This document shows, in pieces, positions 4,263-55,594 of a DNA stretch of 64,000 nucleotides. Source of the stretch: Eledone cirrhosa (Eukaryota); NCBI GenBank assembly GCA_964016885.1, contig OZ024741.1:78926001-78990000 (forward strand). The letters run 5' to 3'. Position numbers and translations under genes: made by a program. Every line of letters starts with the position of its first letter. Position 1 is the stretch's first letter. The notes under the pieces are model-generated. The model searched no databases. It worked only from the letters and a program-made list of their open reading frames with translations, and was not told where the DNA came from.

Positions 4263-4568
4263 AATATATATATATATATATAATATATACTAGGATCGGA
4301 ATTAAGAGTATTCCGCAGTTCACAGTAATAATAATAATATTAGCTCAAAGAAGAATAGAGAATTTTCTTCTGAGCTCAGATACAAATATATTACACAAAT
4401 AGAAGTGTGTTACAGAGTGAGATGTGTGTAAAGAATTATTACAAGTGATTTTTATCGTTACTGTATAGAAAACAATATCTACAGGTTTAGCAATTAAATA
4501 GAAAAAAACCTAAGTCAGAATCAAATCTCTGAATTAGAGTTTTAAATTACCAACCTTATAACTATAAG

Positions 4569-4643
4569 TTTACTGATACGAATCAATTTCGTTTCCCCAC
4601 AGAAATGTGCAGTTTAACAGCCACGGGTTCATCAGTCAGCAAA
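4569..4643 (-). ncRNA. Type I hammerhead ribozyme (family B, inverted copy)
   Basis: Same motif on the minus strand with fully paired stem I UUUGCUGA/UCAGUAAA. Confidence 0.82.
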
Positions 4644-5153
4644 TGTGGATTCTGTTTACTGCACATCTAACCTCATCAGCAAACTTATAGTTATAAGGTT
4701 GGTAATTTAAAACTCTAATTCAGAGATTTGATTCTGACTTAGGTTTTTTTCTATTTAATTGCTAAACCTGTAGATATTGTTTTCTATACAGTAACGGTAA
4801 GAATCACTTGTAATAATTCTTTACACACATCTCACTGTGTAACACACTTCTATTTGTGTAATATATTTGTATCTGAGCTCAGAAGAAAATTCTCTATTCT
4901 TCTTTGAGCTAATATTATTATTATTACTGTGAACTGCGGAATACTCTTAATTCCGATCCTAGTATACTTAACGAGCTCAAAATTGTTGAGCTAATAAATT
5001 CGAATGGTTGGGCTGTCCTCTCTAGCATTTTCCCCAATCCACGAGAGCCGTTATTTGATGCAAATAACACGTGATTTCGCCCTACCCTAGGCAGCGTGTA
5101 TATTAGCTTTCTCTCGATCCATGAGGTTAGATGTGTAGTAAACAGAATCCACA

Positions 5154-5228
5154 TTTGTGGACTGATGAACCCGTGGCTGTTAAACTGCACATTTCTGTGG
5201 GGAAACGAAATTGATTCGTATCAGCAAA
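5154..5228 (+). ncRNA. Type I hammerhead ribozyme (family B)
   Basis: CUGAUGA-A-CCCGUGG...CUGUGGG-GAAAC-GAA(AUUGA)UUC-GUA; stem I UUUGUGGA/UCAGCAAA with one mismatch; cleavage predicted after 5220. Confidence 0.8.
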
Positions 5229-5410
5229 CTTATAGTTATAAGGTTGGTAATTTAAAACTCTAATTCAGAGATTTGATTCTGATTTAGGTTTTTTTCTATT
5301 TAATTGCTAAACCTGTAGATATTGTTTTCTATACAGTAACGGTAAAAATCACTTGTAATAATTCTTTACACACATCTCACTGTGTAACACGCTTCTATTT
5401 GTGTAATATA

Positions 5411-5484
<74 letters not shown>

Positions 5485-5489
<5 letters not shown>

Positions 5490-5580
5490 TAAAAAAACGA
5501 AAAATCAGTGATGCATCTGGACTCAGTTTATTGCAATAAACTGAGTCCAGATGCATCACTGGTTTTTCGTTTTTTTACTA
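5485..5580. repeat. Spacerless palindrome centred on TTG|CAA (5533/5534)
   Basis: aaacgaaaaatcagtgatgcatctggactcagtttattg / caataaactgagtccagatgcatcactggtttttcgttt. Confidence 0.9.
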
Positions 5581-5662
5581 TTCACACTCTGCTCTGTTAG
5601 AATATTGAGTGGTAATTTTGGCATACCGCCTATGGAAGCACCATAGCTATCATTAAACACAC

Positions 5663-5835
<173 letters not shown>

Positions 5836-5877
5836 ATGATATTAAATAAATGGAAACTATATTTATAAAACCAAATA

Positions 5878-5938
5878 TATTCTATTATATATATTTCAAG
5901 AGTACCAAAACCTTGGTACGCTTTCATCAGATAAAATA
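5878..5938 (-). ncRNA. Type I hammerhead ribozyme in an AT-rich PLE-like 3' end
   Basis: UAUUUUAU-CUGAUGA-AAGCGUACC(AAGGUUUU)GGUACUCUU-GAAAU-AUAU-AUA-AUAGAAUA; stems pair, AUA triplet. Confidence 0.7.
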
Positions 5939-6548
5939 TAAAGTTAGTTTTATAAATTTTGACATAACCAAGAAAAATACCTTAACGGTTTCAAATTATT
6001 AAGATGAGTATGCAAATGAGGTAGAGGTATAGGGCTGAAAAAAAAAACGTTATTTTAGATGCTATGCAGAATTTAAATGTATGAGTTGGAAGAAGAAAAA
6101 GGAAGAAAAGCTCGTATTTATGTTAATTTAAAAGGAATTAACACTTTGGGGGAATTGGGAAATATGATTCCGGAATTTAAATTTATTTAGCTATATTATG
6201 AGTTATAATATTGTATATACAATAAATTAGATTATATGAAGAATTGTGGTTGTAAGTATATTTTATCTTATTACATTACAATAGGTTATAAGTATATAAA
6301 TATCTATATAGATTAATAATTGTGCATATATAAGTATTATAGAAATAGAAATAATTTACAATTATTAGTTGTTTACATTTCTAATATGAGTTACGAAGGA
6401 CGTTGATTTTGCATTTTACATAAAAAAAAACAGGTGGTTCAAGTTGTAAGAGAACAATTTGTAGATTCGAATATTTTGTTCCAACATTGAAAATGTTTTC
6501 AGAATATTGTTAATTTAGCGAAGTTATATAGTTTATCGTACATATTAT

Positions 6549-7505: not shown

Positions 7506-8745
7506 TTAATATTTTTTTAAGGCAACGCTTGTAATAACTCTAGTTAAACAGGATATATATTAATAATAAATTATCGTTGTAATGTAATTAGATTATGTAA
7601 TTGTTATTATAAATTATCTTATAAATATTAGTGTAAGATGTATAAAAATATTTTCAGACTTTTAATATAAACAACTACAAAAAAACAATCAATATTAAAT
7701 CAATATATTATACATAATAGAAGACATAAAATAAACAATACAAATACAAAATATTTACATACAATTGCAATTATCAGTGTATATACATTTTCTTTATATT
7801 CCCTGAGCAAATTAATAAGATTTGTTTTTATTGTACATAATTTGATGACTTGTTGGTGTGTATTAAAAGATAGCAACAATTTGTGATTAAATTGTTATCT
7901 TAAGCAACTCACTTTTTAATAGTTGTTGGCTGAGCGAAATTGTAAAAGCCTATGAGCAAATATAAAAAAAAATACACAAACAACATTTCCTTGTGTTATT
8001 ACAACATTAGATAAAATAATTGAGCAATGTCGTTATATTTTGCTCTTATTGCACATTAATAGTGTTTCTATTTTTCGGCACAAATCCATTACGGCAGTCC
8101 ATTACTGGTACTTTATTTTATCGAATTAGTAAGTATGAAAGTCGAAGTTAACCTCGGCAGGATTTGAACTTAGAATGCAAAGGACCATAACAATACTGCA
8201 AAGCATGGTGTCTGACGCTCTACCAATACTTGTGTTGAGCTGGTCATTAATTTATGGTGGTCGTGCGTGGAGTAGAGCAATCGCTAGTTGAAATATTATG
8301 AACAAAACATTTTTATTTGCCGAAGAACATATTTTCAATACTGTTTGTGAATGTGACGAAGGAAATACATTCTGATATGGAACAGTGTACAAAGTGTGTC
8401 TGTGAATAACATAATGTTACCTCATGTTGTTGTCAAGACATAATGGATTTCGTATATCCAGTTAGAAGATGAAACCTAGCCATCTCGGATTAGTTATATT
8501 TCATGCCATGTGTAAACGTGTTTGAGGATAGCAAAATATGCGTGTTTCTTGTCTGGAAACTTTCTGCTAAACAAATTTGTTTCAGTATATATTTAATATA
8601 ATATTAATATATTTTGTAATATTATTAACTAATTATTATAATTAGCGCTTCAGGCTTTGTCTATATACTGAAACAAATTTGTAAGTCATTACCTAATTAA
8701 ACTCTTTGCTTGAAATTTTATCATTCTTCGTTTATATATATATAT

Positions 8746-11188
8746 ACCCACTCGATATGCATATTGGGCTACTCAGCCGTTAATATGCATAAGGTAAGTA
8801 TATACGTTCAACAATCTGGCAGGAAGGTGTGCGTTGCTGACGATAGCTAACGGGCTTGAAACTGGTACAGCGTTCCTTTGTCAGTGTTGAACAAACGAGC
8901 AACGGTGGTTGCTGGACACTGCGGCTTAATACGGGATGTTTGTTTACAAACACACCGAGCATTGTAATAAATGTTCGGTGAATCCATACGTGCATATATA
9001 TATGTGTGCATGTATGTATATATATATATACATACTACTGTACGTCGGTATACATATATGTATGTACGTGTACATACTTATATTTAAGTAACAGCCGTGC
9101 TAAGAGTGGGAAATGAAATATCGTTTCATTTTTTCCGTTTATCGTTTTCGGTGCACCCGGCCGATTAACCCACTCGATATGCATATTGGGCTACTCAGCC
9201 GTTAATATGCATAAGGTAAGTATATACGTTCAACAATCTGGCAGGAAGGTGTGCGTTGCTGACGATAGCTAACGGGCTTGAAACTGGTACAGCGTTCCTT
9301 TGTCAGTGTTGAACAAACGAGCAACGGTGGTTGCTGGACACTGCAGCTTAATACGGGATGTTTGTTTACAAACACACCGAGCATTGTAATAAATGTTCGG
9401 TGAATCCATACGTGCATATATATATGTGTGCATGTATGTATATATATATATACATACTACTGTACGTCGGTATACATATATGTATGTACGTGTACATACT
9501 TATATTTAAGTAACAGCCGTGCTAAGAGTGGGAAATGAAATATCGTTTCATTTTTTCCGTTTATCGTTTTCGGTGCACCCGGCCGATTAACCCACTCGAT
9601 ATGCATATTGGGCTACTCAGCCGTTAATATGCATAAGGTAAGTATATACGTTCAACAATCTGGCAGGAAGGTGTGCGTTGCTGACGATAGCTAACGGGCT
9701 TGAAACTGGTACAGCGTTCCTTTGTCAGTGTTGAACAAACGAGCAACGGTGGTTGCTGGACACTGCGGCTTAATACGGGATGTTTGTTTACAAACACACC
9801 GAGCATTGTAATAAATGTTCGGTGAATCCATACGTGCATATATATATGTGTGCATGTATGTATATATATATATACATACTACTGTACGTCGGTATACATA
9901 TATGTATGTACGTGTACATACTTATATTTAAGTAACAGCCGTGCTAAGAGTGGGAAATGAAATATCGTTTCATTTTTTCCGTTTATCGTTTTCGGTGCAC
10001 CCGGCCGATTAACCCACTCGATATGCATATTGGGCTACTCAGCCGTTAATATGCATAAGGTAAGTATATACGTTCAACAATCTGGCAGGAAGGTGTGCGT
10101 TGCTGACGATAGCTAACGGGCTTGAAACTGGTACAGCGTTCCTTTGTCAGTGTTGAACAAACGAGCAACGGTGGTTGCTGGACACTGCGGCTTAATACGG
10201 GATGTTTGTTTACAAACACACCGAGCATTGTAATAAATGTTCGGTGAATCCATACGTGCATATATATATGTGTGCATGTATGTATATATATATATATACA
10301 TACTACTGTACGTCGGTATACATATATGTATGTACGTGTACATACTTATATTTAAGTAACAGCCGTGCTAAGAGTGGGAAATGAAATATCGTTTCATTTT
10401 TTCCGTTTATCGTTTTCGGTGCACCCGGCCGATTAACCCACTCGATATGCATATTGGGCTACTCAGCCGTTAATATGCATAAGGTAAGTATATACGTTCA
10501 ACAATCTGGCAGGAAGGTGTGCGTTGCTGACGATAGCTAACGGGCTTGAAACTGGTACAGCGTTCCTTTGTCAGTGTTGAACAAACGAGCAACGGTGGTT
10601 GCTGGACACTGCGGCTTAATACGGGATGTTTGTTTACAAACACACCGAGCATTGTAATAAATGTTCGGTGAATCCATACGTGCATATATATATGTGTGCA
10701 TGTATGTATATATATATATACATACTACTGTACGTCGGTATACATATATGTATGTACGTGTACATACTTATATTTAAGTAACAGCCGTGCTAAGAGTGGG
10801 AAATGAAATATCGTTTCATTTTTTCCGTTTATCGTTTTCGGTGCACCCGGCCGATTAACCCACTCGATATGCATATTGGGCTACTCAGCCGTTAATATGC
10901 ATAAGGTAAGTATATACGTTCAACAATCTGGCAGGAAGGTGTGCGTTGCTGACGATAGCTAACGGGCTTGAAACTGGTACAGCGTTCCTTTGTCAGTGTT
11001 GAACAAACGAGCAACGGTGGTTGCTGGACACTGCGGCTTAATACGGGATGTTTGTTTACAAACACACCGAGCATTGTAATAAATGTTCGGTGAATCCATA
11101 CGTGCATATATATATGTGTGCATGTATGTATATATATATATACATACTACTGTACGTCGGTATACATATATGTATGTACGTGTACATA

Positions 11189-11194
<6 letters not shown>
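8746..11194 (+). mobile_element. Tandem array of 422-bp hammerhead-ribozyme-containing units (candidate non-LTR retrozyme, family A), ~5.8 copies
   Basis: Unit starts 'acccactcg' at 8746, 9168, 9590, 10012, 10436 and 10858 (period 422; unit 4 is 424 due to an extra TA); the last unit is partial. Each unit has CTGACGA...GAAAC-TG-GTA with paired stems. No credible ORF. Both flanks are (TA)n. Confidence 0.88.
8831..8873 (+). ncRNA. Type I hammerhead ribozyme (repeated at 9253, 9675, 10097, 10521, 10943)
   Basis: Stem I GCGUUG/CAGCGU; core CUGACGA; stem II U-AGC(UAACGG)GCU-U; GAAAC-UG-GUA, predicted cleavage after 8867. Stem I extends 8806-8892 (GUUCAACA/UGUUGAAC, CUGGCA/UGUCAG, AAGG/CCUU). Confidence 0.85.
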
Positions 11195-11242
<48 letters not shown>

Positions 11243-12709: not shown

Positions 12710-14845
12710 ATGTTAGAACACGAAAAGTGAACATTCTGTTGTTTCACACTTTTCGTGTTCTAACAGATTATAATATGTTTATGTTTGCACGATGGAAAAG
12801 GGACAGATAACTCCAATCTTGTTTGTTAACCGTTAAATTTGATGAATGATTTGCTCAGAAAATAAATAGAGAAAATTATATATTATTTTGTGTGAGATTA
12901 AATATTTTAGTCGAAAGGTGTGTGAAAATTTGAAGATCAAAAGGAAAGGAAAAACGTAATGTACATTTCGAAGAACTATCGTAAAGAGGATAAATTTTCA
13001 GAATGTTAATTAAAGATTATCAATCTACATCTAAAAAATATATTTAGAGGGGTATCATTAGGAAAATAATGTCAGGAGTAAAAAATATTAAAAAATATAA
13101 ATGAATATTAAAAAAATATATATATTAAAAAAAATTAATGTCAAAAGGTAAAAATAGTAGAAATATTAAAAAATTAAGAAGGAAGGTCATTTAAAAGAAT
13201 TTACATTTAACTTTAAATTTAAATTTTTAAAGAAAATAGGATCATTTTGAAGGTGTATAAGATATAGTCAAGTGTAATGAATATCATAAATTAAAAATAC
13301 TTTTGAAAGTGGAATTTTGGCGATGTCTGCAAGAAGAAAATAATTCTGTTTTAAGATTAATAGAGTTCCGACACTCAATTATATAAACAATTTCCTCGAT
13401 ACACAAGTTACGGAATCTTGAGAAAGCCATATTTCGGTATGCAGGTGCTTTCGAAATCGTTCCTCAAGATATTGAATAGTCTATATTGTTGTCTTTTAAG
13501 TTCCAAATTAAATGTGAAAGTGAAGTGGAAGATTTTTTTATCGGATCTCTTAAATGTGTGTTTATGGTTATACCAGCGTTCTTTGAATTTTGTAGAAGTG
13601 GCACCAATATAGTTAAATACTTTGTCTCTAGTTTTAACTGTGCATTTATAAATTACGTTTTTGTCTAAGCAATTATTTTGTAAAGGACAGTTTGATTTAA
13701 TTCTACAGTTACATTTTCTGGAGTTGTTGTTCGGAACGGTACTATTATTCTGAATATTGTTGTTAGAAATATTATTATTGCTATTTTGGTTAGTTTGGTT
13801 AGGGTTTAAATTTAAGTTTCTATTATTAATTCTATTTATATTTTGTGCTATGTTCATAGTTGTAGAGTAGGATAGTTTTATAGTGTGTATCTGTGGGCTT
13901 TAGAAAAACATTTATCTAGTGCTTTAAAGAATAGCTTTACTAAAGGTATTTTAACGCTTAATGAGAATGGGGGAGAGTACCAAATAACATTTCTAGTTCT
14001 AGTTTTTTTGTTTGATTTAGTGTTTAAGTTAAGTTGTTTATTATTATTATAATTAATTCTAGGATGATTTATCATGTTATTGTTATCTATGTATTTAATT
14101 TTATTCGAGTATCCTGCTCTATGTAAAGCTTCATTGAAATATTCTGCCTTATCATCAAAAATATTTTTATTAGCAGAGATGCGTGAAATCCGTTGTTGGA
14201 CGCTATTGACAATAGTGTTTTTTTATATTTCTAGGATGATTAGAATTGAAACTTACGTAATTTAGATTTTCGTTAATTTTATGGAATGGATAGTAAAGAC
14301 CTGTGCTAAGGTTTACCGTTACATTCTCTATTTCTAATTCAAGGTTGTAGTTGTTGAAAAATTGTATTATGGATTTCCTTTACTTATTAATTTCACTATT
14401 GCTATGGTTTTCAATTAAAAGTAAAATATCGTCACGATATAAACCCCCGGTCATCTCTGGCATTTTCCTATGCAGTACATTATTAATAAATAATCCAACG
14501 AGGTCCGTTACTTGCGCCGAGTCAGATAATCCCATAGTGATATCAAAATTGTTTTTTCTGTCGGCTCTTATCCAGAGATGATTATTAAATTCTATTAGGG
14601 TTTTACGTGCTGTTAGAATTATATTCATTTCTTCACTAGATAGGTCTGTATGTTTAGACGCGCAGATAAGTGCCTTATTAAGTAAGCTAGGGGTAATAGA
14701 GGAGTAGTAATTTGCAATATCCATTTGAATGAATTTTTTGTTTTGTTCTAATTTTATGTTATTGAACCAATCTATACCTTCATTAGTACCGTTCCATAGT
14801 TTAAGGTGTGATTTTTCTTTAAGTAGTGGTATAATTCTATCAAGA
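12710..14845 (-). mobile_element. 5'-truncated Penelope-like retroelement (RT + C-terminal GIY-YIG), frameshifted; possibly Nematis-type
   Basis: ORF pieces: DIANYYSSI, FDITMGLSDSAQVTDLVGLFI, GLYRDD (RT); VIWYSPPFS; CNCR..CPL..CL..VIYKC..YIGATSTKFKERWYNHK (GIY-YIG); CRH near 13325; AT-rich 3' region. Confidence 0.88.
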
Positions 14846-14851
14846 GTCAGG

Positions 14852-14947
14852 ACCCTGACGGCTGAGCTCCGGCCGTCTCGACAGCTAGATCCGAACTAAG
14901 CCAGCAGTATTAAAATGGTATCAATCTAGCTGAACTTATCAAGGGGT
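14852..14947 (-). ncRNA. Hammerhead ribozyme, U3-A8 variant, GAAA mutated to GAGA (likely inactive)
   Basis: ACCCC-UUGAUAA-GUUCAGCUAGAU...AUCUAGCUGUC-GAGAC-GGC...GCC-GUC-AGGGU. Confidence 0.65.
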
Positions 14948-15260
14948 ACAGTCCATATATGGGCATGCAGTCAAAACAAAAAAAGCAGAAATATCAAAGC
15001 AAAAAATCCTAAATGAAAAATTCGGGACCCCGACGGCTGAGCTCCGGCCGTTTCAACAGCTAGATCTGAACTCGGATCTAGCTGTTGAAACGGCCGGAGT
15101 TCAGCCGTCGGGGTCCCAAATTTTTCACATTACACACTCTACTACCTCAAGTATCGAGTACTCTGGTGAGTAATGGTCTAACTGATTTTTAGCGCCTCCA
15201 TTCTGATATATATATATATATCAGAATGGAGAAAAACCACAGACCCTCCATCTCAACTCA

Positions 15261-22260: not shown

Positions 22261-22429
<169 letters not shown>

Positions 22430-22430
22430 T

Positions 22431-23129
22431 TATAAATATATGTATGTATACGTACATACATATATATATATACAGACGTACAGTAGTATTATATATATAT
22501 ACATACATGCACACATATATATGTACGTATGGGTTTACCGAACATTTATTATAATGCTCGGTTTGTTTGTAAACGAACATATATATATATACATACTACT
22601 GTACATCTGTATACATATATGTATGTACGTATACATACATACTTACATTTAAGTACCAGCCGTACTAAGAGTGAGAAATGAAATTTCATTTCATTCTTTT
22701 CCATTTATCCTTTTCGGTACGCCCGGCCGACAAACTCACTCGATATGCAAATTAGGCTGCTCAGCCGTTAATATGCATAAGGAAAGTATGTACTTTCAAA
22801 CGTTCAATCATCTGACTGGAAGGTATACGATGCTGACGATAGCTAATAAGCTTGAAACTAGTTCATCGTTCCTTTGTCAGTGTTGAACAAAAGGGCGACG
22901 ATGATTGCGCAACACTGTACGGCTTAATTCGGACTGTTTGTTTACAAACAAACCGAACATTTTAATAAATGTTCGGTAAACCCATAAGTACATATATATA
23001 TGTGTGCATGTATGTATATATATACATATTACTGTACGTCTGTATACATATATGTATGTACGTATACATACTTATATTTAAGTAACAGCAGTACTAAGAG
23101 TGAGAAATGAAATTTCATTTAATTCTTTT

Positions 23130-23132
<3 letters not shown>
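22431..23132 (+). mobile_element. Diverged copy of retrozyme family A (~1.3 units) preceded by an inverted segment (~22431-22580)
   Basis: Clear homology to the 422-bp unit; the 5' part is the reverse complement of an internal segment; flanked by (TA)n. Confidence 0.85.
22827..22869 (+). ncRNA. Type I hammerhead ribozyme, family A diverged copy
   Basis: ACGAUG-CUGACGA-U-AGCU(AAUA)AGCU-U-GAAAC-UA-GUU-CAUCGU; palindromic minimal stem III ACUAGU; GUU triplet. Confidence 0.8.
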
Positions 23133-23175
<43 letters not shown>

Positions 23176-23180
<5 letters not shown>

Positions 23181-23363
23181 CAAGACCCCGACGGCAGAGC
23201 TCAAGCCGTTTCGACTGGTATTTCTGGACAGAAATACCCGTCGAAACGGCTTGAACTCTGCCGTCGGGGTCTTGAACATTTTCCCATTACCCACTCTACT
23301 ACCCCAAGTATGGAGTACTCTGGTGCGTTATGGTCCATCTGGTTCCTTACCAAACTTCCTTCG

Positions 23364-23639: not shown

Positions 23640-24320
23640 CAGGACCTGTATGGAGTGTGTAGGAAATCAGGAGTGTGTATGAAATTAGGCTAGTTAGGAA
23701 GCAGGCGAAAAAGGATACTGTGAGTGGGACGATATAGAATTAAAATGTTAATAACATCCTACTTTTCCCCACTTGCCGAACAAGATAGGGGAAACCCCAG
23801 CATACATGGGTAGATGTACTTCTTTTCTTTTTCCGTTTATCTCTTCTTATCATTTCCTTCCACTCCCTCTCCTCTTTCTTTTCCTTTTTCCCCTTTCGCC
23901 TACCCCGAGGCAGCCCATCGGGCTTTTGTAGCCTCAGTACCTCCACTCCAGTAAATTATATATAGCATTGGCCGAAAACGCAATACCAACTAAAAATATA
24001 GCAGCTGGTTTAGACTCTAGAGATGTTTTTAAATTACTTTTTACTATTTAATTTTATTATTTTTACTTTTTTTTATTCATCTTTTAATCTCAATTTATTA
24101 ACCTTTTAATTCTATAACGTCCCACTCTCAGTATCCTTTTTCGCCTGCTTCCTAACTAGCCTAATTTCATACACTCCTTAGAATTTGCTGTATCGAATTC
24201 ACTTTCAACGCTTAACCGGCTCCACACACTCCCTCATTCTTCTACAGGCAAGTTCAGCCATCCCACCCCCACCACTCCACCCACTGCCATGAGCTCTGCC
24301 GTCGGGGTTAAACATTTTCC
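23640..24320 (+). mobile_element. PLE 3' UTR copy (same family as 49771-50825) with inverted 5' segment; HHR mostly deleted
   Basis: 23750-24320 matches the reverse complement of ~49771-50700; ~23670-23745 is inverted relative to ~24105-24178. Confidence 0.7.
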
Positions 24321-26031: not shown

Positions 26032-29000
26032 TTTCTTTATTGGCCACAAGGGCTGACATCAAGAAAAACATTACAGACGGCACAGGACTGTACAGGACGG
26101 TACGATGTGGGGTTTGTGCGTGTAAATATGTTTATTATTTATATAAGAAAAGAAAAAAAGACATAGAAACATATATATATAAACAATAAAAATGAAAATT
26201 GAAACAATGAAAAATTCCCCAATAGGGGGGAAATCTCCGAGGGTTACTCGTGGCGAAAACCACACAAAAGACCACGACCACCCTGACCACCAGGGCAAGC
26301 GCCCTCTCTCAATTTTTCCATCTCTCAAACTACAGACGTATATTCAGAGCGGTTCCGTTCACTCGGACCATTCTCGCTACATTCACCCACCTTTCAACAA
26401 ACTTGCTAGAAGGCAGCACTTGCCTCTCCACCCTGATTTTCCTCTTCAAGTGAAACTTGAAAAAGTTAATTAGGGATTCGCCGAAGAGGAAAGTGTCTGT
26501 CTTTAACCCTTTCAACCTTGTCCACCACACAATCTCTTTCGCCATGGCCACCAGGCAGATGAAAACCGCCTGATCAGTCCTCCACGCGACAGCAACTGTT
26601 CGACATAGCTCCACAAGTCAGCAATGCTCGGGCACTGAACGAGTGAGTGCACGACGGTTTCGTCGCTCTGAGCGCATCTCGGACAGGCTCGGCTGACGGC
26701 ATTTCCGTGCCTGTAGAGCTTATCTCGAACGGCAGCGCTCCCCGGTTGCACTGCCAGGCCAGGGATTTTTGGAAGTTATCCATAGGCCCTGGAAGAGAGC
26801 AAACAGCTGGTCTTCTTCGATGTCCAGGATCTCTCCGAGAACGTCGTCGCTCATCCACTCCACTAGTCCTCTAGAGAATGCCGAGGTGGATGTTCCACCG
26901 ATACTGGTGCCCAGCTGGCAGAGGGCAGTGAGCACCTGGAGACATTCCAGTTTCCAAGCGCTATCCCTCGGTCTTTTTCTGACCCAGGACTGGAGCTCCG
27001 TCAAGGAGACGAGCTGTGGGAAAACGTGCCTGGCGAACGGCAACCACACCTGTTCACCGTCAAGGAAGCTCCAGAGATGTCGCAGCCTCAGCGCATGTTT
27101 GCGCATCATCAGCCATGGCATGCCCAGTCCTCTACGCAGTGGGTGTTGGCAGCAAATGGATCGTCTGACCATGGGAGCGCGTCCCTTCCACAAAAAGCGG
27201 AAGAGGAGGTGCTCCATTTTGGTGAGAGTTGTGCCGGGGCAAGGGACGACGGTGAGGCGGTAGCAGATGACGGATGCGCTGTACACATTCGCCACCTCCG
27301 CCCAGCCTTTCAGGGACAGCTTCCTCTCCGACCATTTCAGGGTGAGGGAGGCCACCTTGCTCGTCACCTCGTCCCAGTTTTTCTCCATCTGGAGGTCCGG
27401 TCCGAACCAGACCCCGAGCAATTTAACCGGTCCGTCCGTCCAACGCCCCACGACGCTGTCGGACGGCATGGACCTGCCTCCCCAGGTACCGAGCTGCAAG
27501 CCCACCGACTTTTCCAGGTTTATCTTTGCTCCTGTCACCGCTTCGTATTCCTTGAGAGCGGTGCCGAGCATCTGGACGTGTCTGGTGCTCGACACCACTA
27601 CGGTGACGTCTTCGGCGTAAGCCGACTCGGATTTCCCGCATCCTAGTTCGCGTGGGACGCCCCTCATCGCCCCCAGTTTGTGCAGTAACGGCTCGAGAGT
27701 CAATACGTACAAGAGGGTCGAGAGTGGACAAACCTGGCGGACTGAGCGCATGATGCTGAACGGCTGCGACAGGTGAACGTTCACCCTCACAACTGAGCAG
27801 ATGTCGCTGTACATCGCAGCGATCCAACCCCTGAAAACAGCCCGAAACCGGTTGCTTCGAGGACCGCCGCCAGGTACCGATTGTCGACCCTATCGAATAC
27901 TTTGGATTGATCCGAGTTGATCAGGGCCCCACCCGTGCCAGGTTCCTTAACCACCCTCTCTATGATGTATCGCATGACGTGGAGGTTGTCGTGTATGGAT
28001 CTGTCTGGAATGGCGCATTTTACGCCTCTCCCACCAGACCCTTGACGACAAGTGCCAACCTCGTTCGTCTTTTCTCAGCAGCGCCACCGCTCTCCGGCTC
28101 ACAAAACTGACTATGCTACCGTTCTGCTGCCAGTTGCAGTAGACGTCTGCTAAGAGGTCACCGAACAAGTCTGGCATAAATGCATAAAGCTCGTAGGGCA
28201 GACCATCCAAACCTGGCGATTTACCCCTCGTGCAGTTTGCCATCGCTTCCCGTATTTCACCGGCTGTTATTGGCTTTTCGCAACACTGTGCTGCCGTCGT
28301 CGAGAGCCGCCGAAGCAGTCCGTCGGGGTATGCACTGAAGTCCAAGCCCCGATCCGGTCCGCCGCTGCTCCCGAACAGTTCAGCAAAGTGCTGCTGAAAA
28401 GCTTCACACATCTGTGCGGGTTCGAGCAGCACGCACTCGTTTTGGTCAGACAAAAACCGAATTGTGGCTTTGTTGCCACATCGCGCCCCTGCCATCCGGG
28501 CCCATTGGACGGCTATTGTCCCCACGTGTTTCAGAGCTCTGACAACGCAGCCTTCGTGTTTTGCGTTGAAGAATTGGTCGAGTGCCAATCTCGCCGCAAG
28601 CACGTCGGTTGCGATGCCTGTCCTAAACGCCTCTTCTAGCTTTCTGACTCTCTCCCCCTCTACTCTATTTTCCTCTATCACTACTCCTTTGCTAAACCTA
28701 ATCGACTCTACTTTAATTGCCCTTCTCAGGGCGAACCACCACCTGTTGTTGACGACCGCTCCCGTCAACGCCCGCTTAACTAATACGCTAATCCGGTCTC
28801 TGTAGGCTTTGCGCGCCGGGAAAGACGTGTTCAGCTTCCAGTAACAGGGCCCTTGTCTATGAAGTCTGTCTATGTCGATCTCACAGATCACAAATTTGTG
28901 GTCTGTGTAGTCGACTATTTTAAATTGTGGACAACTTATACTAGCCTTATCTAGTTCTCTGCAGAATACCCTATCGAGATACGATCTGGATGACCCGATG

Positions 29001-30399
29001 CGGTTTGTCCCAGTCCACATTGGCACATTCTGGTGATCCAGTCGATACCTGTCAGACAGTTCAATACATCTGAGCAGGTTGGTGAGGCTCTTGCACCCTC
29101 CTCCCCTATGCACTAGCCCCACACAATCCCAACGTGCATCCAAGATACCGTTCCAGTCGCCCACTAACACTAAAGAGCGGGACGTTCCAAGAAAGGTCTC
29201 TAGACGTCTGAAGAAATCTGTCCGTTCTGCCCCTGTTGGGGCGTAGACGGCTACTAGCCTGAAAGCATTGCCTTCTCTGCCAGTTACGTCCAGCACCACC
29301 GACTTACCTTCTGGGTCTAGGAAGATGGCCTGTATGGCGAGATCCAAGCCTCTCCGAAAAAGGACGGCAACCCCTCCCCCCCCCGATCCTAGACGGCTGA
29401 GAGATGAGTATACATCGTTGCCGCCGAAGATCGGTGCGAAGGCTTGTCCTTCGGAGATTCTGGTCTCGCTGATGGCCACTACATCTATGTTTAGTGACCT
29501 GAGGTCGTTGAGCAGAGGTGACCCTTCTTCCAAGATGACCCCAGATCACGTGCATTTATACTGCCTATTCTGAGTACGGCCATGTTGGATGAGAAACGGG
29601 GCAAGTGAGAAAGGGTCACTTACCTTGATTGTGTAGTGAAGGGACAGTAGAACCGTCCCTTTGGCTGGTCATGGGTGTTTCCAAGAGGATGTCAGTGTAT
29701 ATCCTCTTGGTAACCGACCCTCTAAAGTCTCCCACTGCGTTGGGGAATTTTTGTTTTAAAGGTTTGTACTGTTCTATTGAGATTTCAATGATGCTTATGT
29801 TTGTCGGGAGAGTTCTTGGTGTTGGTGGGGTGTAGTAGTTTTTTTCTGTGATGTCTGTGTGCTGCTTTATATATTGTATGAGTTCTTTTTTTGCCATGTT
29901 TATGGCTGTGTACTTTTTGGGGGGAGGGGTGATTTTGTTGCTGTTTACTTCTTGTTGCTGTTTGGTGTGTGTGTTTTGTTTTGTTTGCGTTGTTGGTGTT
30001 TTTGGTGATGCTGGTGGTGGTGTGGTTGTTTTTGGCGGTGGTGCTTGTGGTGGTGATGGTGATGGTGGTCGTGTTGCTGCAAGTTTCCCTGCTGCCTTTA
30101 CCCCTCTTTGTGTGCCTTCGCTTTTGGAGGGTGAATCTAAGGGTTTTTTTCTTCTTTGTTTTTTGTGGCAGACCGTTTGCCACTTCACTCCTGCCTCAAA
30201 CTCCATGTCGGATTCCGTGGTGTCTGGGAGGGGTATTTGCTCCACGGCTGGTGGTGGTGGTACTGGAGCCCTCTTCGGCAATTTTGTTGCTGGTGTAGCT
30301 ACTTCAAATGTAGCTATTGGTGTAGCCGCCACTGATGATGCTGCTTTAGTTGTCCGTGGCCTTGGTACGGGTGCCACGGACGTTGCCTCCTACTCACTG
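26032..30399 (-). mobile_element. L1/Tx1-clade LINE, 5'-truncated within ORF1; ORF2 disrupted
   Basis: ORF 27947-29533 has APE motifs (ISET, AVYAP, GDWN, YLDR, TDH, YWKLN, KSPGLDG); 26720-27814 RT (YAED); C-terminal CPRC..ET..H..C; 3' AATAAAGAAA. Confidence 0.93.
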
Positions 30400-30663
30400 T
30401 AATAATAATAATAATAATGTTTTCTTTATTAACCACAAGGGTTTACATAAAGTAGACATTAAGGACAGTACAGGACAATACAGGACGGTACAAATGGGCA
30501 TTTCTGCGTGTGAAAAAAAACAGAAGATGTAATAAAATAACAAAGAAAGATTCCCCAATAGGAGGGAGACTTCTGAGGGACATTTGTGGAGAAAGCCCAT
30601 TAAAAGACCACAGTGACCCTGACCACCAGGGCAAGTGCCCTCTCCCAGTTTTCCACCTTTAAT

Positions 30664-33600
30664 TTACAGACACATACTCAGAGTAGGCCCATTCACTCGG
30701 GCCATACTTGCCTCTCTCACCCATCTTTCAACAAAATGCTGGGAAGAGAGCACTTCTCTCTCTACCCTGATTTTCCTTTTCAAATGAAATTTGAAAAAGG
30801 TAATCAGGGCATCACCGAAGAGGTAAGTGCTCGTCGTCAACCCTTTCAAACGTGTCCACTATACTATCGCTTTCGCCATGGCTACCAGACAGATAAAAAC
30901 TACCTGCCCTTCCTGGCTAAAGGAAGAGAGCGGGGCAATCCTCACGATGGACTCAGCTGATAGCTGGATCCGTCCTACACGTGACCGCAGGTGTTCGAAC
31001 TAAACCCACAAGTCAGCAATGCTCGGACACTGGACGAGTGCGTGCAGGATGGTTTCGTCGCCCTGCGCGCATCTCGGACATGCCCGGCTGACGGCACCTC
31101 CATGCCTGTAGAGTTTATCCCGAATTGCCAAAGCTCCTCGGTAGCACTGCCAGGCTAGGGATTTCTGGAAGTTGTCCATAGGCCCCGGCCTGAAAGTTCT
31201 TCCGAAGAGATTGGCTAGTTGATTTTCGTCGACGCCTAGAGTTTCCCCATGTACGTCGTCGCTCTTACCCTCCATTATTCCTCTATATACCGCCAAGGTA
31301 GAGTTTCTACCGATCACATTGCCCGATTGGTCGAGGGCTGTGAGCGCCTGAAGACATTCCAGTCTCCAAGCGCTCCCTCTCGGTCTTCGCTTGACCCAAG
31401 ACTGCAGCTCCGTCAAGGAGACGAGCTGGGGAAAGACGCGTCGAGCAAACGGCGACCACACCTGAGCACCGTCGAGGAAGAGGTGAAGATGTCGTAGCCT
31501 GAGCACGTGTCTGCGCATCATCAGCCACGGCATGCCCAGCCCTCCACGTAGCGGGTGTTGACAGCAGATGGACCGCCTGACCATCGGAGCGCGTCCTTTC
31601 CACAAAAAGCGAAAGAGCAAACGATCCAGCGCAGTCAGGCGGGGCTTAGGACAAGGTACGACGGTCAGGCGGTAGTAGATGACGGACACGATGTACGCTT
31701 AGCCACCCTGCTCGTCACCTCGTCCCATTTTTTGTCCGTCTGGAGGTCCGGACCGAACTAGACCCCTAGCAATTTAACCGGTCCGTCCGTCCAGCGCCCG
31801 ACGACGTTGTTGGACGGCATGGACCTGTCTCAACAGGTGCCGAGCTGCAGGCCCACTGACTTTTCCTGGTTGATCATTGCTCCTGTCACCGCTTCGTATT
31901 CTCTTAGTGTAGTGCCGATCGCCTCGATGTGTTTGGCGTTCGACACCACTACGGTGACATCGTTGGCATATACTGACACGGATCTTCCGCATCCTAGTTC
32001 GCGCGGGACCCCCCTCAACGTCTCCAGTTTGTGCAGTAATGGCTCGAGAGTCAATACGTATAATAGGGACGAGAGGGGACATACTTGGCGGACCGAGCGC
32101 ATGATGTTGAACGGTTCCGAAAGGTGACCGTCCACTCTCACTACAGAGCAGATCTCGCTGTGCATGGCAGCGATCCAGCCTCTGAAGACGGGCCCAAAGC
32201 CAGCCGCCCTCAGGACTGCCGCTAGATAACGATGGTCGACCCTATCGAAGGTTTTCGACTGATCTAAATTGATCAAAGACCCACCCGTGCCAGGTTCCCT
32301 AGCTACCCTCTCTACGATGTATCGCATGAGGTGGAGGTTGTCGTGGATGGATCTGTCGGGAATGGCGCATGTCTGTGCCTCTCCCACCAGACAACCAACG
32401 ACAAGCGCCAACCTCTTTGCTAGCACCTTGGCCAAAATATTGAACTCTGTGTTTAGCAGAGTTATGGGCCTAAAACTATCTATGTTATCCCCCTTGTTCG
32501 GATCCTTTCTCAGCAGCGCCATCGCTCCTCGGCTCACAGAGCTGGGAATTCTCCCGTTCTGTTGCCAGTTGCAGTAGACGTCCGCCAAGAGGCCTCCGAA
32601 CAAGTCTGGCATTTGTACGTAAAGTTCATAGGGCAGACCATCTAAACCAGGCGATTTACCCCTTGTGCAACTAGTCATTGCATCCCGTACTTCAGCGGTT
32701 GTTATCGGCTTTTCGCAACACTCCGCCTCAGTGGCCGAAAGCCGCGGCAGTCCGTCGAGGTAGACACTAAAGTCCATCCCTCGATCCGGCCCGCCACTGC
32801 CCCCGAACAGTTGAGCGAAGTGTTGCTGAAAAGCTTCACACATTTGCCCGGGATCGAGTAGCATGCGCCCGTCGTGGTCCACCAAAGACCGGATCGTGGC
32901 TTTGTTGCCACGACGCGCCTCCGCCACTCGGGCCCATTGAACGGCTTTCGTCCCCTCGTGTCTGAGAGCACGCACCCTAGCTCTGACAACGTAGCCTTCG
33001 TGCTTTGCATTGAAGAATTGGTCAAGGGCCAATTTCGCCGCAAGTACGTCGGTCGCGATGCCTTTGCTAAGCGCCTCATCTAATTTTCTAACTAATTCTC
33101 CCTCTGCTCTATTTTTCTCTATTGCTAAAGTCTTACTAAACCTAATGGACTCTATTCTAATTGCTCTTTTCAGAGCAAACCACCACTTGTTGTTGACTAT
33201 GGCTCCCGTCAACGCCCGCTTAACTAGTTTGCTAATCCGGTCTCTGTAGGCCTTGCGCGCTGGTAAGGACGCGTTTAGCTTCCAGTAGCCGGGTCCTCGT
33301 CTATGAAGCCTATCTAAGTCAAGCACACAGATCACGAATTTGTGGTCCGTGTAGCTGACTATCTTGAATTGTGGACAGCCTATGCTAGACCTATCTATTT
33401 CCCTACAAAATACTCTATCTAGATATGATCTGGATGACCCTATGCGATTTGTCCAAGTCCACATTGGTACATTCGGGAAATCCATTCGGTACCTGTCAGA
33501 CAGTTCAAAACGTCTGAGCAGGTTGGTGAGACTCTTGCACCCTCCTTCCCTATCCACTAATCCCACACAATCCCAGCGTGCATCTAAGATCCCGTTCCAG

Positions 33601-34022
33601 TCGCCCACTAACACTAAAGAGCGGGACGTTCCAAGAAAGGTCTCCAGACGCCGGAAGAAATCAGGCCGCCCTGCTCCTGTCGGGGCATAGACGGCCACTA
33701 ACCTGAAAGCTTGCCCGTCTCCGCTGGTCACGTCCAGCACCACCAACTTACCTTCTGGGTCCAGGAAGATGGCCCGTATGGCGAGATCCAAACCTCTCCG
33801 AAAAAGCACAGCAACTCCTCCCCCCGATCCCGGACGGCTGGGAGATGCGTACACATTGTAGCCGCCGAAGATCGGTGCGAAAGCCTGTGCTTCGGAGATT
33901 CTGGTCTCGCTGATGGCCACTACATCTATGTTTAGTGACCTGAGGTCGTTGAGCAGGTGGCCCTGCTTCCATGACGACCCCAAGCCACGCGCATTTATGC
34001 TGCCTATTCTGATTTAGGTCAT
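30664..34022 (-). pseudogene. Tx1 ORF2 (APE endonuclease-reverse transcriptase-zinc finger), disrupted
   Basis: 717-aa ORF 31830-33983 with FRPITLLNTE, LDQSKTFDRVDH, RQVCPLS, YAND; continued in 31000-31689 and 30664-30849. Confidence 0.92.
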
Positions 34023-34056
34023 GTTGAAAAGGAGTGGAAAAGATGGGAAAGACCAC

Positions 34057-36051
34057 TTACCTTACTTCTCGTAAGGAAAGGACGGTTTTTCCATCCTTTT
34101 CACTGCTTGTGGCCTCGTCAGGAAGGATGTCCTTATAAATCCCCCTGGAGAGTGCTTGTCGGAAGTCTCCGATGTCTTTGGGGAATTTTTGTTTTAGTGT
34201 CGTGTACGTTTTCTGTGTGATGCGAGTGATTTGTATGTGTGTAGGTAGTGTGAACTTTTGGGTTGTTGTGTAGTCTATTTCTGTGATGCTGGTGTTGTGT
34301 TGGATGTAGTGTAATAATTGCTTGTTGTTCAAATTTAATGCTGTGTAGTGTGTATCATTTTGGTTGTTTTGTTTTGTTTGCGTTTGTTGTGGGTTTGTTT
34401 CTGTTTCGCATTTTGGTGACTTTTGTGGTGTAGGTGATGGTGGTGTTGGGGTTAATGATGGTGATGGTGTTCGTGTTTGGGTTGATGGGGTTGGTGATGC
34501 TGGTGTGGATGGTGGCATATCTGTCCTAACTTTTTTGTTTCTTAGTTTATTTGTTTCCCTCTGTATTTTGTTTTTGGAGGGGGAAGGAAGAGAATTTTTT
34601 CTTTTTTGGTTTCTTTTTTTTTTCCGCATATCGTTTCCCACTCCTCGTCGTCACAATCTGTCTCCAGTTGTGATAGGCCGGGGAGTGGAAAGTCCTCCAC
34701 AGGCGTTAGTTTTGGTTGTGGCGTGGTGGATGGTGTAGGCGCTGGTGCTAGTTCTAAAGCGTTGGGTGGTGGTGGTGTTGGCTTTGCTGGTGGTGGTGGT
34801 GGTGTTGGTTTTGCTACTGTTGCTGGGGTTGTTGCTGTTATAGTTGCTTCTGTTGTTGCTGCTACAGTTGTTGCTGCCATCTCTGCTACTGGTGGTGTTG
34901 ATGGTTGTGTCACTGGGGTGGGTAGGAGAGGTGGCCTCAACCTTTTAGCCTGAGGGCAGAAAGCTCTTAGGTGGGTTCCTTCACCACAAACGACACACCT
35001 AGGTCTTCTACCCTCGACAATTACCGTGAGGTGGCTGCCGTCAGTGAGGTCTATTACCTCTGGGATCTCCTCAATGCTTTTTTGGTCCGCTTGGATCAGG
35101 AGCTCCATCCCAGATCCGGACCAGTTCTCCTGCTTTTCTTTTGCTATTGCTATTATTTTTGTGTTGGCTTCGATGCCGGCGAGGACGGCCGCTATTAGCC
35201 ATGGAATTTCGATGGCCGGTGGAACGTGGGTCACCCTGATCTTTACGAGTCTCTGGCCACAATAGCTTGGGACGAGTGTGAAGTCGTCACTTCTTAATGG
35301 GGCCGTGGAGTGTTCTCTAGCCTCCTCTGGTGTTTCAAAAAACACGTCCACGGTTCAATACTTTTGCCCACGTCTGATGTGGGTATTTCTTGCCCACACA
35401 TGTCCCAAAGCTTTTTGGATTTGGGACTCGGATGCCCGTTCCACTCGGCGCGATTTTACATTTATTGTTCGATACGACACGGTGCATAGGCGCCGATGCT
35501 CCATTTTATTAGGTGGGGGGGGGGGGGCTGACCCTGTACCCATCTTTCTTTACCATTTGTTTAGCATTTTCTAAATCCTCCTGAGTTACCGTAAATGCTT
35601 CGAACTGTTTTGCTACTCTGGCGAAACTGAGGGTGGTTTTTATAATGTCATTGTTGTTGTTGTTGCTATCGTTATTTGTGTTAATATTAATTTTAGTTTC
35701 AGTTGTGGTGGTGGTGACGTCAGTCGTCTTTGGTGGGGAAGAGTCCATTTTGCTTGATTTCATTTCGACATCACGAGTTAATTTATTTTTTTCTTCTTTT
35801 GTTTCTGTTGTCGCGGTGGTGGTGGGAGTGGTGGTTGTCGCGGTGGTGGTGGTGGTGGAGGCTTTAACACCTGCAGTCATTGGTAATGGCGGGAAATGAA
35901 TGTCTGCCTGAGACAAATTTAAAATATTGTTACTGCTTATATTTTTTGTAGTGTTGGCAAACGTAGTAACATTTACAATGGTGGTGTCGGTGTGAGGTGT
36001 TAATTTGTGAGGAAGCCTTTCAGCTGCTTGGTGCAGAGGTGAATTAGCCAT
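34057..36051 (-). pseudogene. Tx1 ORF1 (gag-like, zinc knuckle), frameshifted partly at homopolymer runs
   Basis: SFARVA motif, RPRCVVCGEGTHLRAFCP, Pro/Thr-rich linker; C-terminus homologous to ORF 29616-30377. Confidence 0.8.
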
Positions 36052-53898: not shown

Positions 53899-54002
53899 CC
53901 CCCCCCCCCCTCTCTGTATATATCATAATATGATAAAATGTCTATATATACATTTATCGCTTTCTCTCTCACTCACTCTATCTATCTATATATTTATCTA
54001 CA

Positions 54003-55556
54003 AACGTTGACAGGAGCAAGACTAAACCCAAACAAGTTTGTCGGTTTGCAACTCGGTACATGGAGAGGCAAACCCATGCCTTCCGACAGTGTCGTTGGAC
54101 GCTGGACAGAAGGACCGGTGAAATTTCTCGGGGTCTGGTTTGGTCCAGACCTCCAGGTGGATAAGAATTGGAACGAGGTCACGGCGAAGGTGTTTGCACT
54201 CACCCAGAAGTGGGCTGAGTGCAAACCCTCATTAAAAGGTCGAGCGGAGGTGGCGAACACTTACATAGCGTCCGTCATCTACTACCGTTTGACAGTCGTG
54301 CCTTGTCCCCGCGAATACCTCACCAAAATGGAACGCCTACTCTTCAAGTTCCTCTGGAAGAAACAGGCTCCATTAGCGAGGAGAGCCATCTGCTGTCAAC
54401 ACCCTTCTAACGGAGGGCTGGGCATGTCGTGGCTGAAGATGCGCAAACACGCGCTGAGGCTACACCATCTCCAGGTGTTCCTGACCGGCGAACCGGTGTG
54501 GCTGTCGTTTGTGAGACGAGCTCTTCCAAAACTCGTCTCACTAACAGAGCTGCAGTTCTGGGTCAAGCGAAGACCGAAAATGGGCGCCTGGCACCTCGAG
54601 TGCCTTCAGGCGCTCACAGCCCTCTACCAAGCGGAAACGGCAATCAGCGGAGACTCCACTTCGACATTCTATAGGGGATTAGTGGAGGATAAGTGCGACG
54701 ACCTTCTCGGGGAAACTCGAGGCATCGAGGAAGACGAACTGACCAGTCTGTTCGGGAGGACTTTCCGTCCAGGGCCTATGGATAACTTCCAGAGGTCTCT
54801 GGCCTGACAATGCTACTGAGGAGCTCTACCAGTTCGAGACAAATTCTACAAGCACCGACACCCTGGCAGAGATACTGCCAAAAGGACCTGTCCAAGATGC
54901 GAGCAAGACATCGAAACCGTTCTGCACGCAATTGTTCAGTACCCAGGGGTGACCGACCTGTGGAATCATGTCGAACAGTTACTGTCACGTGTAGGACGCA
55001 TTCAGTTGTCAGCCGAGTCCATCGTGAGGATCACCCCGCCGCCTTCATTTAAGAATGAAGGAGAGGCGGCCTTCCTCTGTCTGGTGGCTATGGCGAAAGA
55101 GGTAATATGGTGGACGAGGTTAAAAGGACTGAGGGCAAGCACCTTTCTCTCCGGACAACAACTTATCCCCTTCTTTATGTACCACTTCAGAAGGAAGGTA
55201 AGAGTGGAGAGAGAGGTGCTACACCCCAGTAAATTCGCTGAAAGGTGGGTGAATGTGGTGAAAATGGCCCGGGTGAATGGGCCTTCTCTGTATATAAACC
55301 TATAGGTTGAGGAAGATAAACAGAGGGAAGACGGGAGCACTTACAAAACGTGTTCCTGATGTTGAGGGTTGTCCTATCTACGGGGTAAAACGACACCACA
55401 GTAGCGTTACCCACTCCCCCCTAATGGGGTTTTCAATTGTTTTATTTTTATATAGTTTATTGTTATTTATCATTGATAAAGATTTTATGTAAAACCCCCG
55501 CCGTTACGTCATGTAATGTCCCATTTTTGTACGCCCCTGTGGCAAATAAAGAAAGA
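54003..55556 (+). mobile_element. 5'-truncated L1/Tx1 LINE flanked by (TCTA)n
   Basis: ORFs 53938-54807 and 54949-55305 homologous to the Tx1 ORF2 C-terminal part; 3' AATAAAGAAA. Confidence 0.9.
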
Positions 55557-55594
55557 TATCTATCTATCTATCTATTTATCTATCTATCTATCTA

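Follow-up and report, generated by a model that had tools for sequence, protein, structure and literature searches.

Organization of the locus

Within the window, the 64,000-nucleotide stretch of Eledone cirrhosa DNA analysed here, a repeat copy occupies positions 22433-23137, in agreement with an initial annotation that had placed it at 22431..23132. Its main part is ~85% identical to the 422-bp unit of an array at 8746-11195. This copy was inserted into (TA)n and has two arms placed head to head, an inverted arm, absent from the initial annotation, and a forward arm of ~1.3 units, with a 2-nt overlap at their junction. The features of the copy, the array and two nearby pieces of a Penelope-like element (PLE) are as follows.

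22263-22432, no strand: left flank, (TC)n then (TA)n
22433-22580, reverse strand: inverted arm, unit positions 191-341, with its 3' end at site A and facing left into (TA)n/(TC)n
22579-22708, forward strand: 5'-truncated partial unit of the forward arm, containing AGCCGTAC (22658) and GAGTGAG (22669)
22709-23137, forward strand: full monomer of subfamily S2, ending at site B
22735-23104, forward strand: predicted long-range helix 1, CUCACUC (22735-41) with GAGUGAG (23098-104)
22827-22869, forward strand: type I hammerhead, structure predicted from inspection
22827-32/22864-69, forward strand: hammerhead stem I, 6 bp
22833-39, forward strand: hammerhead box CUGACGA
22841-44/22849-52, forward strand: hammerhead stem II, 4 bp
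22854-57, forward strand: hammerhead box GAAA
22857-62, forward strand: hammerhead stem III, palindromic ACUAGU
22863, forward strand: N17, a U, with the predicted cut just after it
22917-23094, forward strand: predicted long-range helix 2, GUACGGCU (22917-24) with AGCAGUAC (23087-94)
23067-23137, forward strand: site A (CATACTTAT, 23067-75), tail of 56 nt, and site B (TTTTCC then A/T, 23126-37)
23132-23177, no strand: right flank, (AT)n, the likely target microsatellite
8746-11195, forward strand: array of subfamily S1, 5.8 units of 422 bp, ending at site A in (TA)n
8829, 8831, 8852, 8853, 8864, 8914, 8921, 8964 and 9099, forward strand: private A-to-G changes of the array (first-unit positions), found in every unit covering them
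13408-14895, reverse strand: fragment of an abundant PLE, reverse transcriptase (RT) then a C-terminal GIY-YIG-like segment, motifs identified by eye; candidate partner family
5828-6000, reverse strand: terminal repeat of the same PLE family; it holds a minimal hammerhead at 5893-5930, has the motif TTTCCATTTAT in common with site B and ends in (TA)n

Directly to the right of the copy, a 100-bp near-perfect, GC-rich, MITE-like hairpin lies in (TA)n at 23178-23282; the same hairpin type occurs at 15021-15120 and ~24290-24315 of the window and at one further locus (L237). At 26700-35350 and 53900-58100 there are several non-LTR retrotransposons in a decayed state, with an APE endonuclease and an RT (Pfam hits for 31830-34013).

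Hammerhead and predicted fold

The copy carries a type I hammerhead core, as defined in PMC4209133, with helices I (6 bp) and II (4 bp) and a short palindromic helix III, the arrangement of non-LTR retrozymes. Among subfamilies the core is complete and varies only at the free position 7; at N17, the copy's subfamily has U and the others have A. Positions 10.1/11.1 form U.U, a non-standard pair that may lower the activity of the predicted hammerhead. In subfamily S2b (L128, L153, L182, L186, L192, L206), C.A replaces U.U, both sides having changed and the pair remaining non-standard. In the predicted monomer fold the core is tied up in an extension of stem I, which is consistent with the dimer-dependent cleavage known for metazoan hammerheads (PMC4209133). 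In Xenopus, eight of nine predicted hammerhead dimers failed to cleave in vitro (Li 2026, bioRxiv 10.64898/2026.07.22.740005). Because the copy at 22433-23137 carries only one hammerhead, no monomer release is expected from it. An Rfam search of the window gave no match at gathering level, and no hammerhead appeared among the 150 of 186 matches listed, which were mostly microRNA-like hairpins in TA repeats.

A dispersed family that also forms satellites

The core pattern has 27,698 matches genome-wide (3.0 Gb), and its reversed control has none. The units are short (420-490 nt), tandem and low in GC, without coding capacity or LTR, as in retrozymes, and fall into at least six subfamilies that are 2-19% apart. 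Judged from its sequence, the family is a real element, a type I hammerhead non-LTR retrozyme, of a kind already known. It had been described as dispersed and mobile rather than a local satellite; dispersal and mobility are borne out, but the opposition to satellites is not. A 51-kb satellite of the long subfamily, in which at least 65 units have a stem II A-to-G change, lies at G000:C3:12272006-12323207, and L201 and L214 are long, old, diverged arrays with higher-order repeats of ~5 units. Such old long arrays show growth at the DNA level. At L120:1137-3073, an array alternates between two diverged unit types, the pattern that a dimer template, or duplication of a dimer, should produce. A second hammerhead-like repeat at 4300-5410 of the window, with cores at 4591-4635 (reverse strand) and 5161-5205 (forward strand) and longer stems II and III, also has two arms set head to head, of which the right-hand arm ends in (TA)n, and is probably another retrozyme family.

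For the comparisons below, 168 loci were analysed: an unselected run of 57 pattern matches on one contig (C1), the 30 closest to the copy, the 9 closest to the array, 39 with an A-to-G change in stem III (16 of them hand-picked), 32 with the mirror change (4 hand-picked), and the array itself. Overlapping fetches and two segmental duplicates were removed, and the TA-rich model columns 283-380 were masked.

Proposed covariation between the array and the copy

The initial annotation had read the differences between array and copy as compensatory. All the strings it quoted are present (ACGATG at 22827 with CATCGT at 22864; AGCT-AATA-AGCT at 22841; CTCACTC at 22735 with GAGTGAG at 23098; GTACGGCT at 22917). 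Between array and copy there are 2 double pair-keeping changes, 10 one-sided pair-keeping changes and 7 that break pairs intact in the array, the two double changes being U.G to A-U in stem I and C-G to U-A in the long-range helix GAGUGGG/CCCACUC. When the copy is compared with its own subfamily, six changes fall in pairs and all six break them.

The array is an unfair reference for this comparison, since its private A-to-G changes explain the differences in stem II, in the first stem I pair and in UGCGGCU/AGCCGUG. Unedited S1 relatives read ACGUUG in stem I and UACGGCU/AGCCGUAC in the long-range helix. In the proposed stem I change from GCGUUG/CAGCGU to ACGAUG/CAUCGU, the double change from U.G to A-U therefore survives and the first pair does not. 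The stem II change from AGC..GCU to AGCU..AGCU is lost as covariation, as AGCU..AGCU is what the unedited relatives have too. In UGCGGCU/AGCCGUG, a 2-nt indel beside the helix apart, the two substitutions are likewise array A-to-G changes. The change from GAGUGGG/CCCACUC to GAGUGAG/CUCACUC is a true double change that keeps the pair; between subfamilies this helix shows true covariation from C-G to U-A, with a U.G intermediate on the tree. The string AGCCGUAC at 22658 sits in the upstream partial unit; its counterpart in the full monomer is AGCAGUAC (23087), with which the helix is broken. In this helix, GUACGGCU/AGCAGUAC, one pair is broken in the copy, and two compensated pairs are found among subfamilies S3-S5. 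The catalytic boxes, said to be unchanged, are so for CUGACGA and GAAA but not for N17, which has gone from A to U (GUA to GUU, 22863). Scars of RNA editing can thus pass for compensatory evolution when two copies are compared. The sequence at 8715-8745, immediately upstream of the array, resembles a site-B end followed by (TA)6; an older element may thus have ended where the array inserted.

Selection on RNA structure

Changes were placed on a tree of 158 loci with at least 250 columns (FastTree and a simple ancestral model), using a structure model that joined a sequence-only fold to the canonical stems I and II. On terminal branches, changes per column were 2.99 in paired and 3.08 in unpaired positions, and on internal branches (at least 4 tips) 0.24 and 0.50. 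With one clade of edited copies, grouped by homoplasy, left out, pair-breaking and unpaired changes stood at 16:60 on internal branches (at least 4 tips) versus 362:370 on terminal ones (p = 1.6e-6), and transitions that keep or break pairs at 22:4 versus 181:133 (p = 0.007). Among 28 monomers, double changes were seen in 11 of 107 pairs, most clearly in stem I and both long-range helices (33 cells, against 12 in shuffles and 1-15 in slid controls). As the shuffles ignore relatedness, they are not taken as proof. Helices 9 and 11 are poorly kept, being paired in 79% and 72% across subfamilies, and RNAalifold gives a small covariation term of -2.4 kcal/mol.

On internal branches, that is, on source lineages, none of the 11 core positions changes. 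Since most loci had been chosen for an intact core, a core-blind pattern was also searched: 91 of the 100 matches listed were intact, the other nine were scattered (three in one cluster), and no core-variant subfamily was present among these 100.

Altogether, these results support selection on structure in the source lineages; the signal is real but comes from a small number of independent events. Individual inserted copies, that at 22433-23137 included, decay neutrally, and for this reason a core that mutates as freely as the rest, which had been offered as a refutation, is no valid one on single copies. The proposal of selection across the whole monomer holds as to selection and not as to the whole, given the weak helices 9 and 11 and the masked TA-rich third. 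The annotation's conclusion is thereby partly supported and largely holds, while the evidence quoted for it mostly fails.

Two fixed ends and head-to-head insertion

Throughout the family, the 3' end of an arm is fixed at one of two sites that lie 56 nt from each other, site A (CATACTTA) and site B (TTTCC-R-TTTAT), and is followed by (TA)n; 5' ends are variable. Among 109 head-to-head pairs detected, 65 join an A end to a B end, 4 have the same end twice, in 35 an end is unclassified and 5 extend beyond the fetched stretch. The one-A-one-B rule is therefore followed by 65 of 69 classifiable pairs (p = 3e-15). Only one of the four same-end pairs (L154) was clean on inspection, and many unclassified ends are profile artefacts in the longer S3 units. 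Single arms end at A in 35 cases and at B in 40. A TA run of at least 8 lies beyond 86/109 and 79/109 ends of the head-to-head pairs, and junctions overlap by 1-3 nt in most young loci, with two longer fold-backs.

The adjoining inverted 5'-truncated copy and the microsatellite target are features expected with a PLE partner. By analogy, the 56-nt stretch between the sites and the inverted copy correspond to PLE tail and inverted-copy anatomy (Craig et al. 2021, PMC8557442). Furthermore, the anole PLE has two internal RT start sites and extends both strands (Frangieh et al. 2024, PMC11167929). A search of the accessible literature returned no report of twin priming in PLEs or in such retrozymes.

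A-to-G footprints in inserted copies

Compared with four mutually agreeing relatives of its own subfamily, the array differs at nine positions, and all nine differences are A-to-G on the ribozyme strand; one of the sites is common to L059. The nine-change haplotype occurs six times genome-wide, always within the array. Further clustered loci are L139 (15/25 changes A-to-G), L206 (11/31) and L203 (8/11). Overall, 9 of 168 loci are A-to-G clustered, compared with 0 for T-to-C (despite the 32 loci chosen for the mirror T-to-C change), 3 for C-to-T and 5 for G-to-A. The clustering and strand specificity are those of an ADAR footprint. ADAR enzymes favour a 5' neighbour U or A and disfavour G. The 5' neighbour is U at 40/71 A-to-G sites versus 27/97 for all A (p = 2e-4), and G at 6/71 versus 18/97; sites also recur in independent loci. 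No enrichment in predicted pairs was found (41/71 versus 54/97), and 57/71 sites lie in or beside predicted pairs versus 74/97 for all A. The genome has A_deamin (deaminase-domain) genes.

Private A-to-G changes are common to both arms in 41/112 cases versus 121/799 for other changes, and to all tandem units in 31/115 versus 91/933, that is, shared ~2.5 times as often. Because they are common to opposite arms and to tandem units, these changes are older than insertion.

The palindromic stems provide mirrored controls of identical trinucleotide context. For stem III, 121 versus 71 matches were counted, or 64 versus 42 loci on C1-C4 (p = 0.04); for stem II, a single 65-unit array inflates the count of 141 versus 54, and counting by locus leaves no significant difference (C1-C2: 23 versus 18, p = 0.53). 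With the selected site excluded, the ratio of private A-to-G to T-to-C changes is 67:27 among the 23 loci that carry the stem III A-to-G change and 43:47 among 28 mirror loci; in 96 loci selected for neither change it is 92:57 (p = 0.011). The genome-wide excess is thus modest.

The nine array changes are likely an ADAR footprint, and we infer that ADAR acts on a small minority of templates. Such editing footprints in the genome would imply an RNA stage of the element. Editing was also considered as a driver of subfamily evolution, which the spectrum of changes did not support: the balance of A/G and C/T changes did not differ significantly between internal and terminal branches (p = 0.62). 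Cervera 2020 (PMC7229834) named RNA editing as one possible cause of circRNA heterogeneity, and in the accessible literature no report on ADAR footprints in retrozyme copies was found.

A candidate Penelope-like partner

First-look candidates for a PLE-like RT such as that of the window number 26,660 genome-wide, and PLEs with hammerheads are abundant in the genome; Pfam gave no hit to the PLE pieces of the window. The hammerhead of the PLE terminal repeat reads CUGAUGA-UAGC...CUUGAAA in several copies, and TTTCCATTTAT lies near the end of the repeat, in some copies 12 nt ahead of (TA)n. In the two PLE families tested (20 loci each), terminal repeats gave no alignment to the family model beyond TA-rich sequence, the shared sequence being the 11-nt motif and a similar hammerhead core flank only. 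At L117, a retrozyme arm stands head to head with a piece of a second PLE family, which stops before that family's normal terminus; this junction of retrozyme arm and PLE endonuclease fragment is present twice, in inverted orientation (L117:3300-4148 and 4888-6370). The chimera indicates that two arms can derive from different RNAs. The link between retrozyme and PLE is made by the motif, the core flank and this chimera, and the mobilising partner is likely a PLE.

Proposed mechanism and alternative readings

We consider it probable that 22433-23137 arose by insertion of a non-coding type I hammerhead retrozyme and is now decaying, the element likely being mobilised as circular RNA by a PLE reverse transcriptase-endonuclease. 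Multimeric loci would be transcribed, the transcripts would cleave themselves as hammerhead dimers via the palindromic stem III, and the monomers would be circularised, with host ADAR editing a small share of the RNA molecules. The PLE protein, probably a dimer, would cut both strands of a (TA)n target and use site A to prime one strand and site B to prime the other. Each RT may circle more than once, giving 0.3-7.5 units per arm; the two cDNA ends would then be joined head to head through 1-3 nt of microhomology, and some arrays would afterwards grow at the DNA level. Several observations speak against this scheme: the non-standard 10.1/11.1 pair and the Xenopus dimers, the modest genome-wide A-to-G excess and the lack of enrichment of edited sites in predicted pairs, the short PLE homology, the L117 chimera, end sites that resemble the target, and the growth of old arrays as DNA.

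The array bears on the template. It spans unit position 1 to 341, so any precursor held at least two copies of the edited region, and at the 8 edited sites covered by both its first and its last unit, the two agree throughout. Unequal crossover keeps the first and last units; as these are identical here and the assembly holds no source locus, one molecule read repeatedly is the simplest reading. A second case of shared edits, with 7 units, is L199. Gene conversion, or a source locus missing from the assembly, is a possible alternative origin of the identical units. The bolder claim, that the ADAR marks are germ-line single-molecule barcodes, with a PLE enzyme having copied one RNA circle for ~six turns while its two subunits each primed one DNA strand, using different fixed sites of that circle, is put forward tentatively, at a little under even confidence.

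The strongest competitor, which we rate as unlikely, dispenses with the circle: a linear multimeric transcript, or two separate RNAs, would have served as template, and DNA-level tandem growth with gene conversion after insertion would have made the units identical. It draws support from the higher-order repeats of L201 and L214, the 51-kb array, the alternating units of L120, the L117 chimera and the anole PLE, which used uncleaved RNA in vitro (PMC11167929). However, a linear multimer would be edited unit by unit, whereas even the smallest precursor of the array already held two copies of the edited region with first and last units agreeing at 8/8 sites; the assembly has no source locus for the haplotype, and young arms span a continuous 0.3-7.5 units.

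Less probable still is an origin of the A-to-G clusters in RT misincorporation or in unsampled sub-lineages instead of ADAR. Such an origin fits the modest genome-wide asymmetry, the lack of enrichment in predicted pairs and the choice of part of the loci for one A-to-G change; yet RT errors would vary from pass to pass, while these changes repeat in every unit, and the 5'-U preference, the recurrent sites and the nine A-to-G loci against none for T-to-C also oppose it. A DNA fold-back, MITE-like repeat or satellite spreading at the DNA level, with hairpins and hammerhead-like motif incidental, is very improbable: head-to-head arms do mimic inverted repeats, satellites exist and both strands fold better than shuffles, but the plus strand folds 4-37 kcal/mol lower, 3' ends are fixed with variable 5' truncation, changes are strand-specific, transitions show a G.U-tolerant evolution (keep:break 22:4 versus 181:133), and the complete hammerhead core varies only at position 7.

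If the single-circle reading is true, it explains the tandem, inverted and tail anatomy of PLEs, and host RNA editing becomes a heritable source of A-U to G.U to G-C steps that mimic covariation. The element is of a known kind, and its value lies in unusually direct genomic evidence on mechanism: the family offers a 422-nt template, two mapped candidate priming sites and a near-strict one-A-one-B rule, and its edited arrays argue for one molecule copied repeatedly. The editing barcode and the one-A-one-B rule are the most interesting content.

Comparison with known systems

In L1 twin priming, each of two 3' ends at the target primes a cDNA, and microhomology links the two cDNAs head to head. 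The retrozyme differs in that both primers would sit at fixed internal sites, there is no poly(A), and both arms can cover the same sequence several times. APOBEC-edited retrotransposon copies share with it clusters of one mismatch type fixed by a host deaminase (Zaranek et al. 2010, PMC2873906); there the change is G-to-A on cDNA, whereas in the retrozyme it would be A-to-G on the RNA strand before reverse transcription.

Like the animal non-LTR retrozymes described so far (PMC7229834; bioRxiv 10.64898/2026.07.22.740005), the family consists of low-GC tandem units that have no coding capacity and carry a single type I hammerhead with a short palindromic helix III; it also numbers tens of thousands of copies and co-occurs with PLEs. 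Its unit of 420-490 nt is at the upper end of the range, and the U.U at 10.1/11.1 is atypical. The accessible parts of those descriptions contain no mention of inverted two-armed insertions, two fixed ends, (TA)n targeting or editing footprints. Circle-based retrotransposition of retrozymes by PLE enzymes has been proposed in print, with support in the accessible papers from co-occurrence, homology and expression only.

The likeness to EN+ PLEs (PMC8557442; PMC11167929) lies in partial tandems, an adjoining inverted 5'-truncated copy, a tail at one end only, microsatellite targets, and two internal RT start sites with both strands extended. Unlike these, the retrozyme has no ORF, and its tail measures 56 nt as against 30-40 in PLEs. 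The near-strict one-A-one-B rule seen in vivo also differs from PLE behaviour in vitro, where the start site was alike on both strands, and the proposed retrozyme priming sites are similar to their (TA)n target, while priming by the anole PLE took place without homology (PMC11167929). Craig et al. (PMC8557442) listed the tandem and inverted structures and the microsatellite bias of PLEs as open mechanistic questions.
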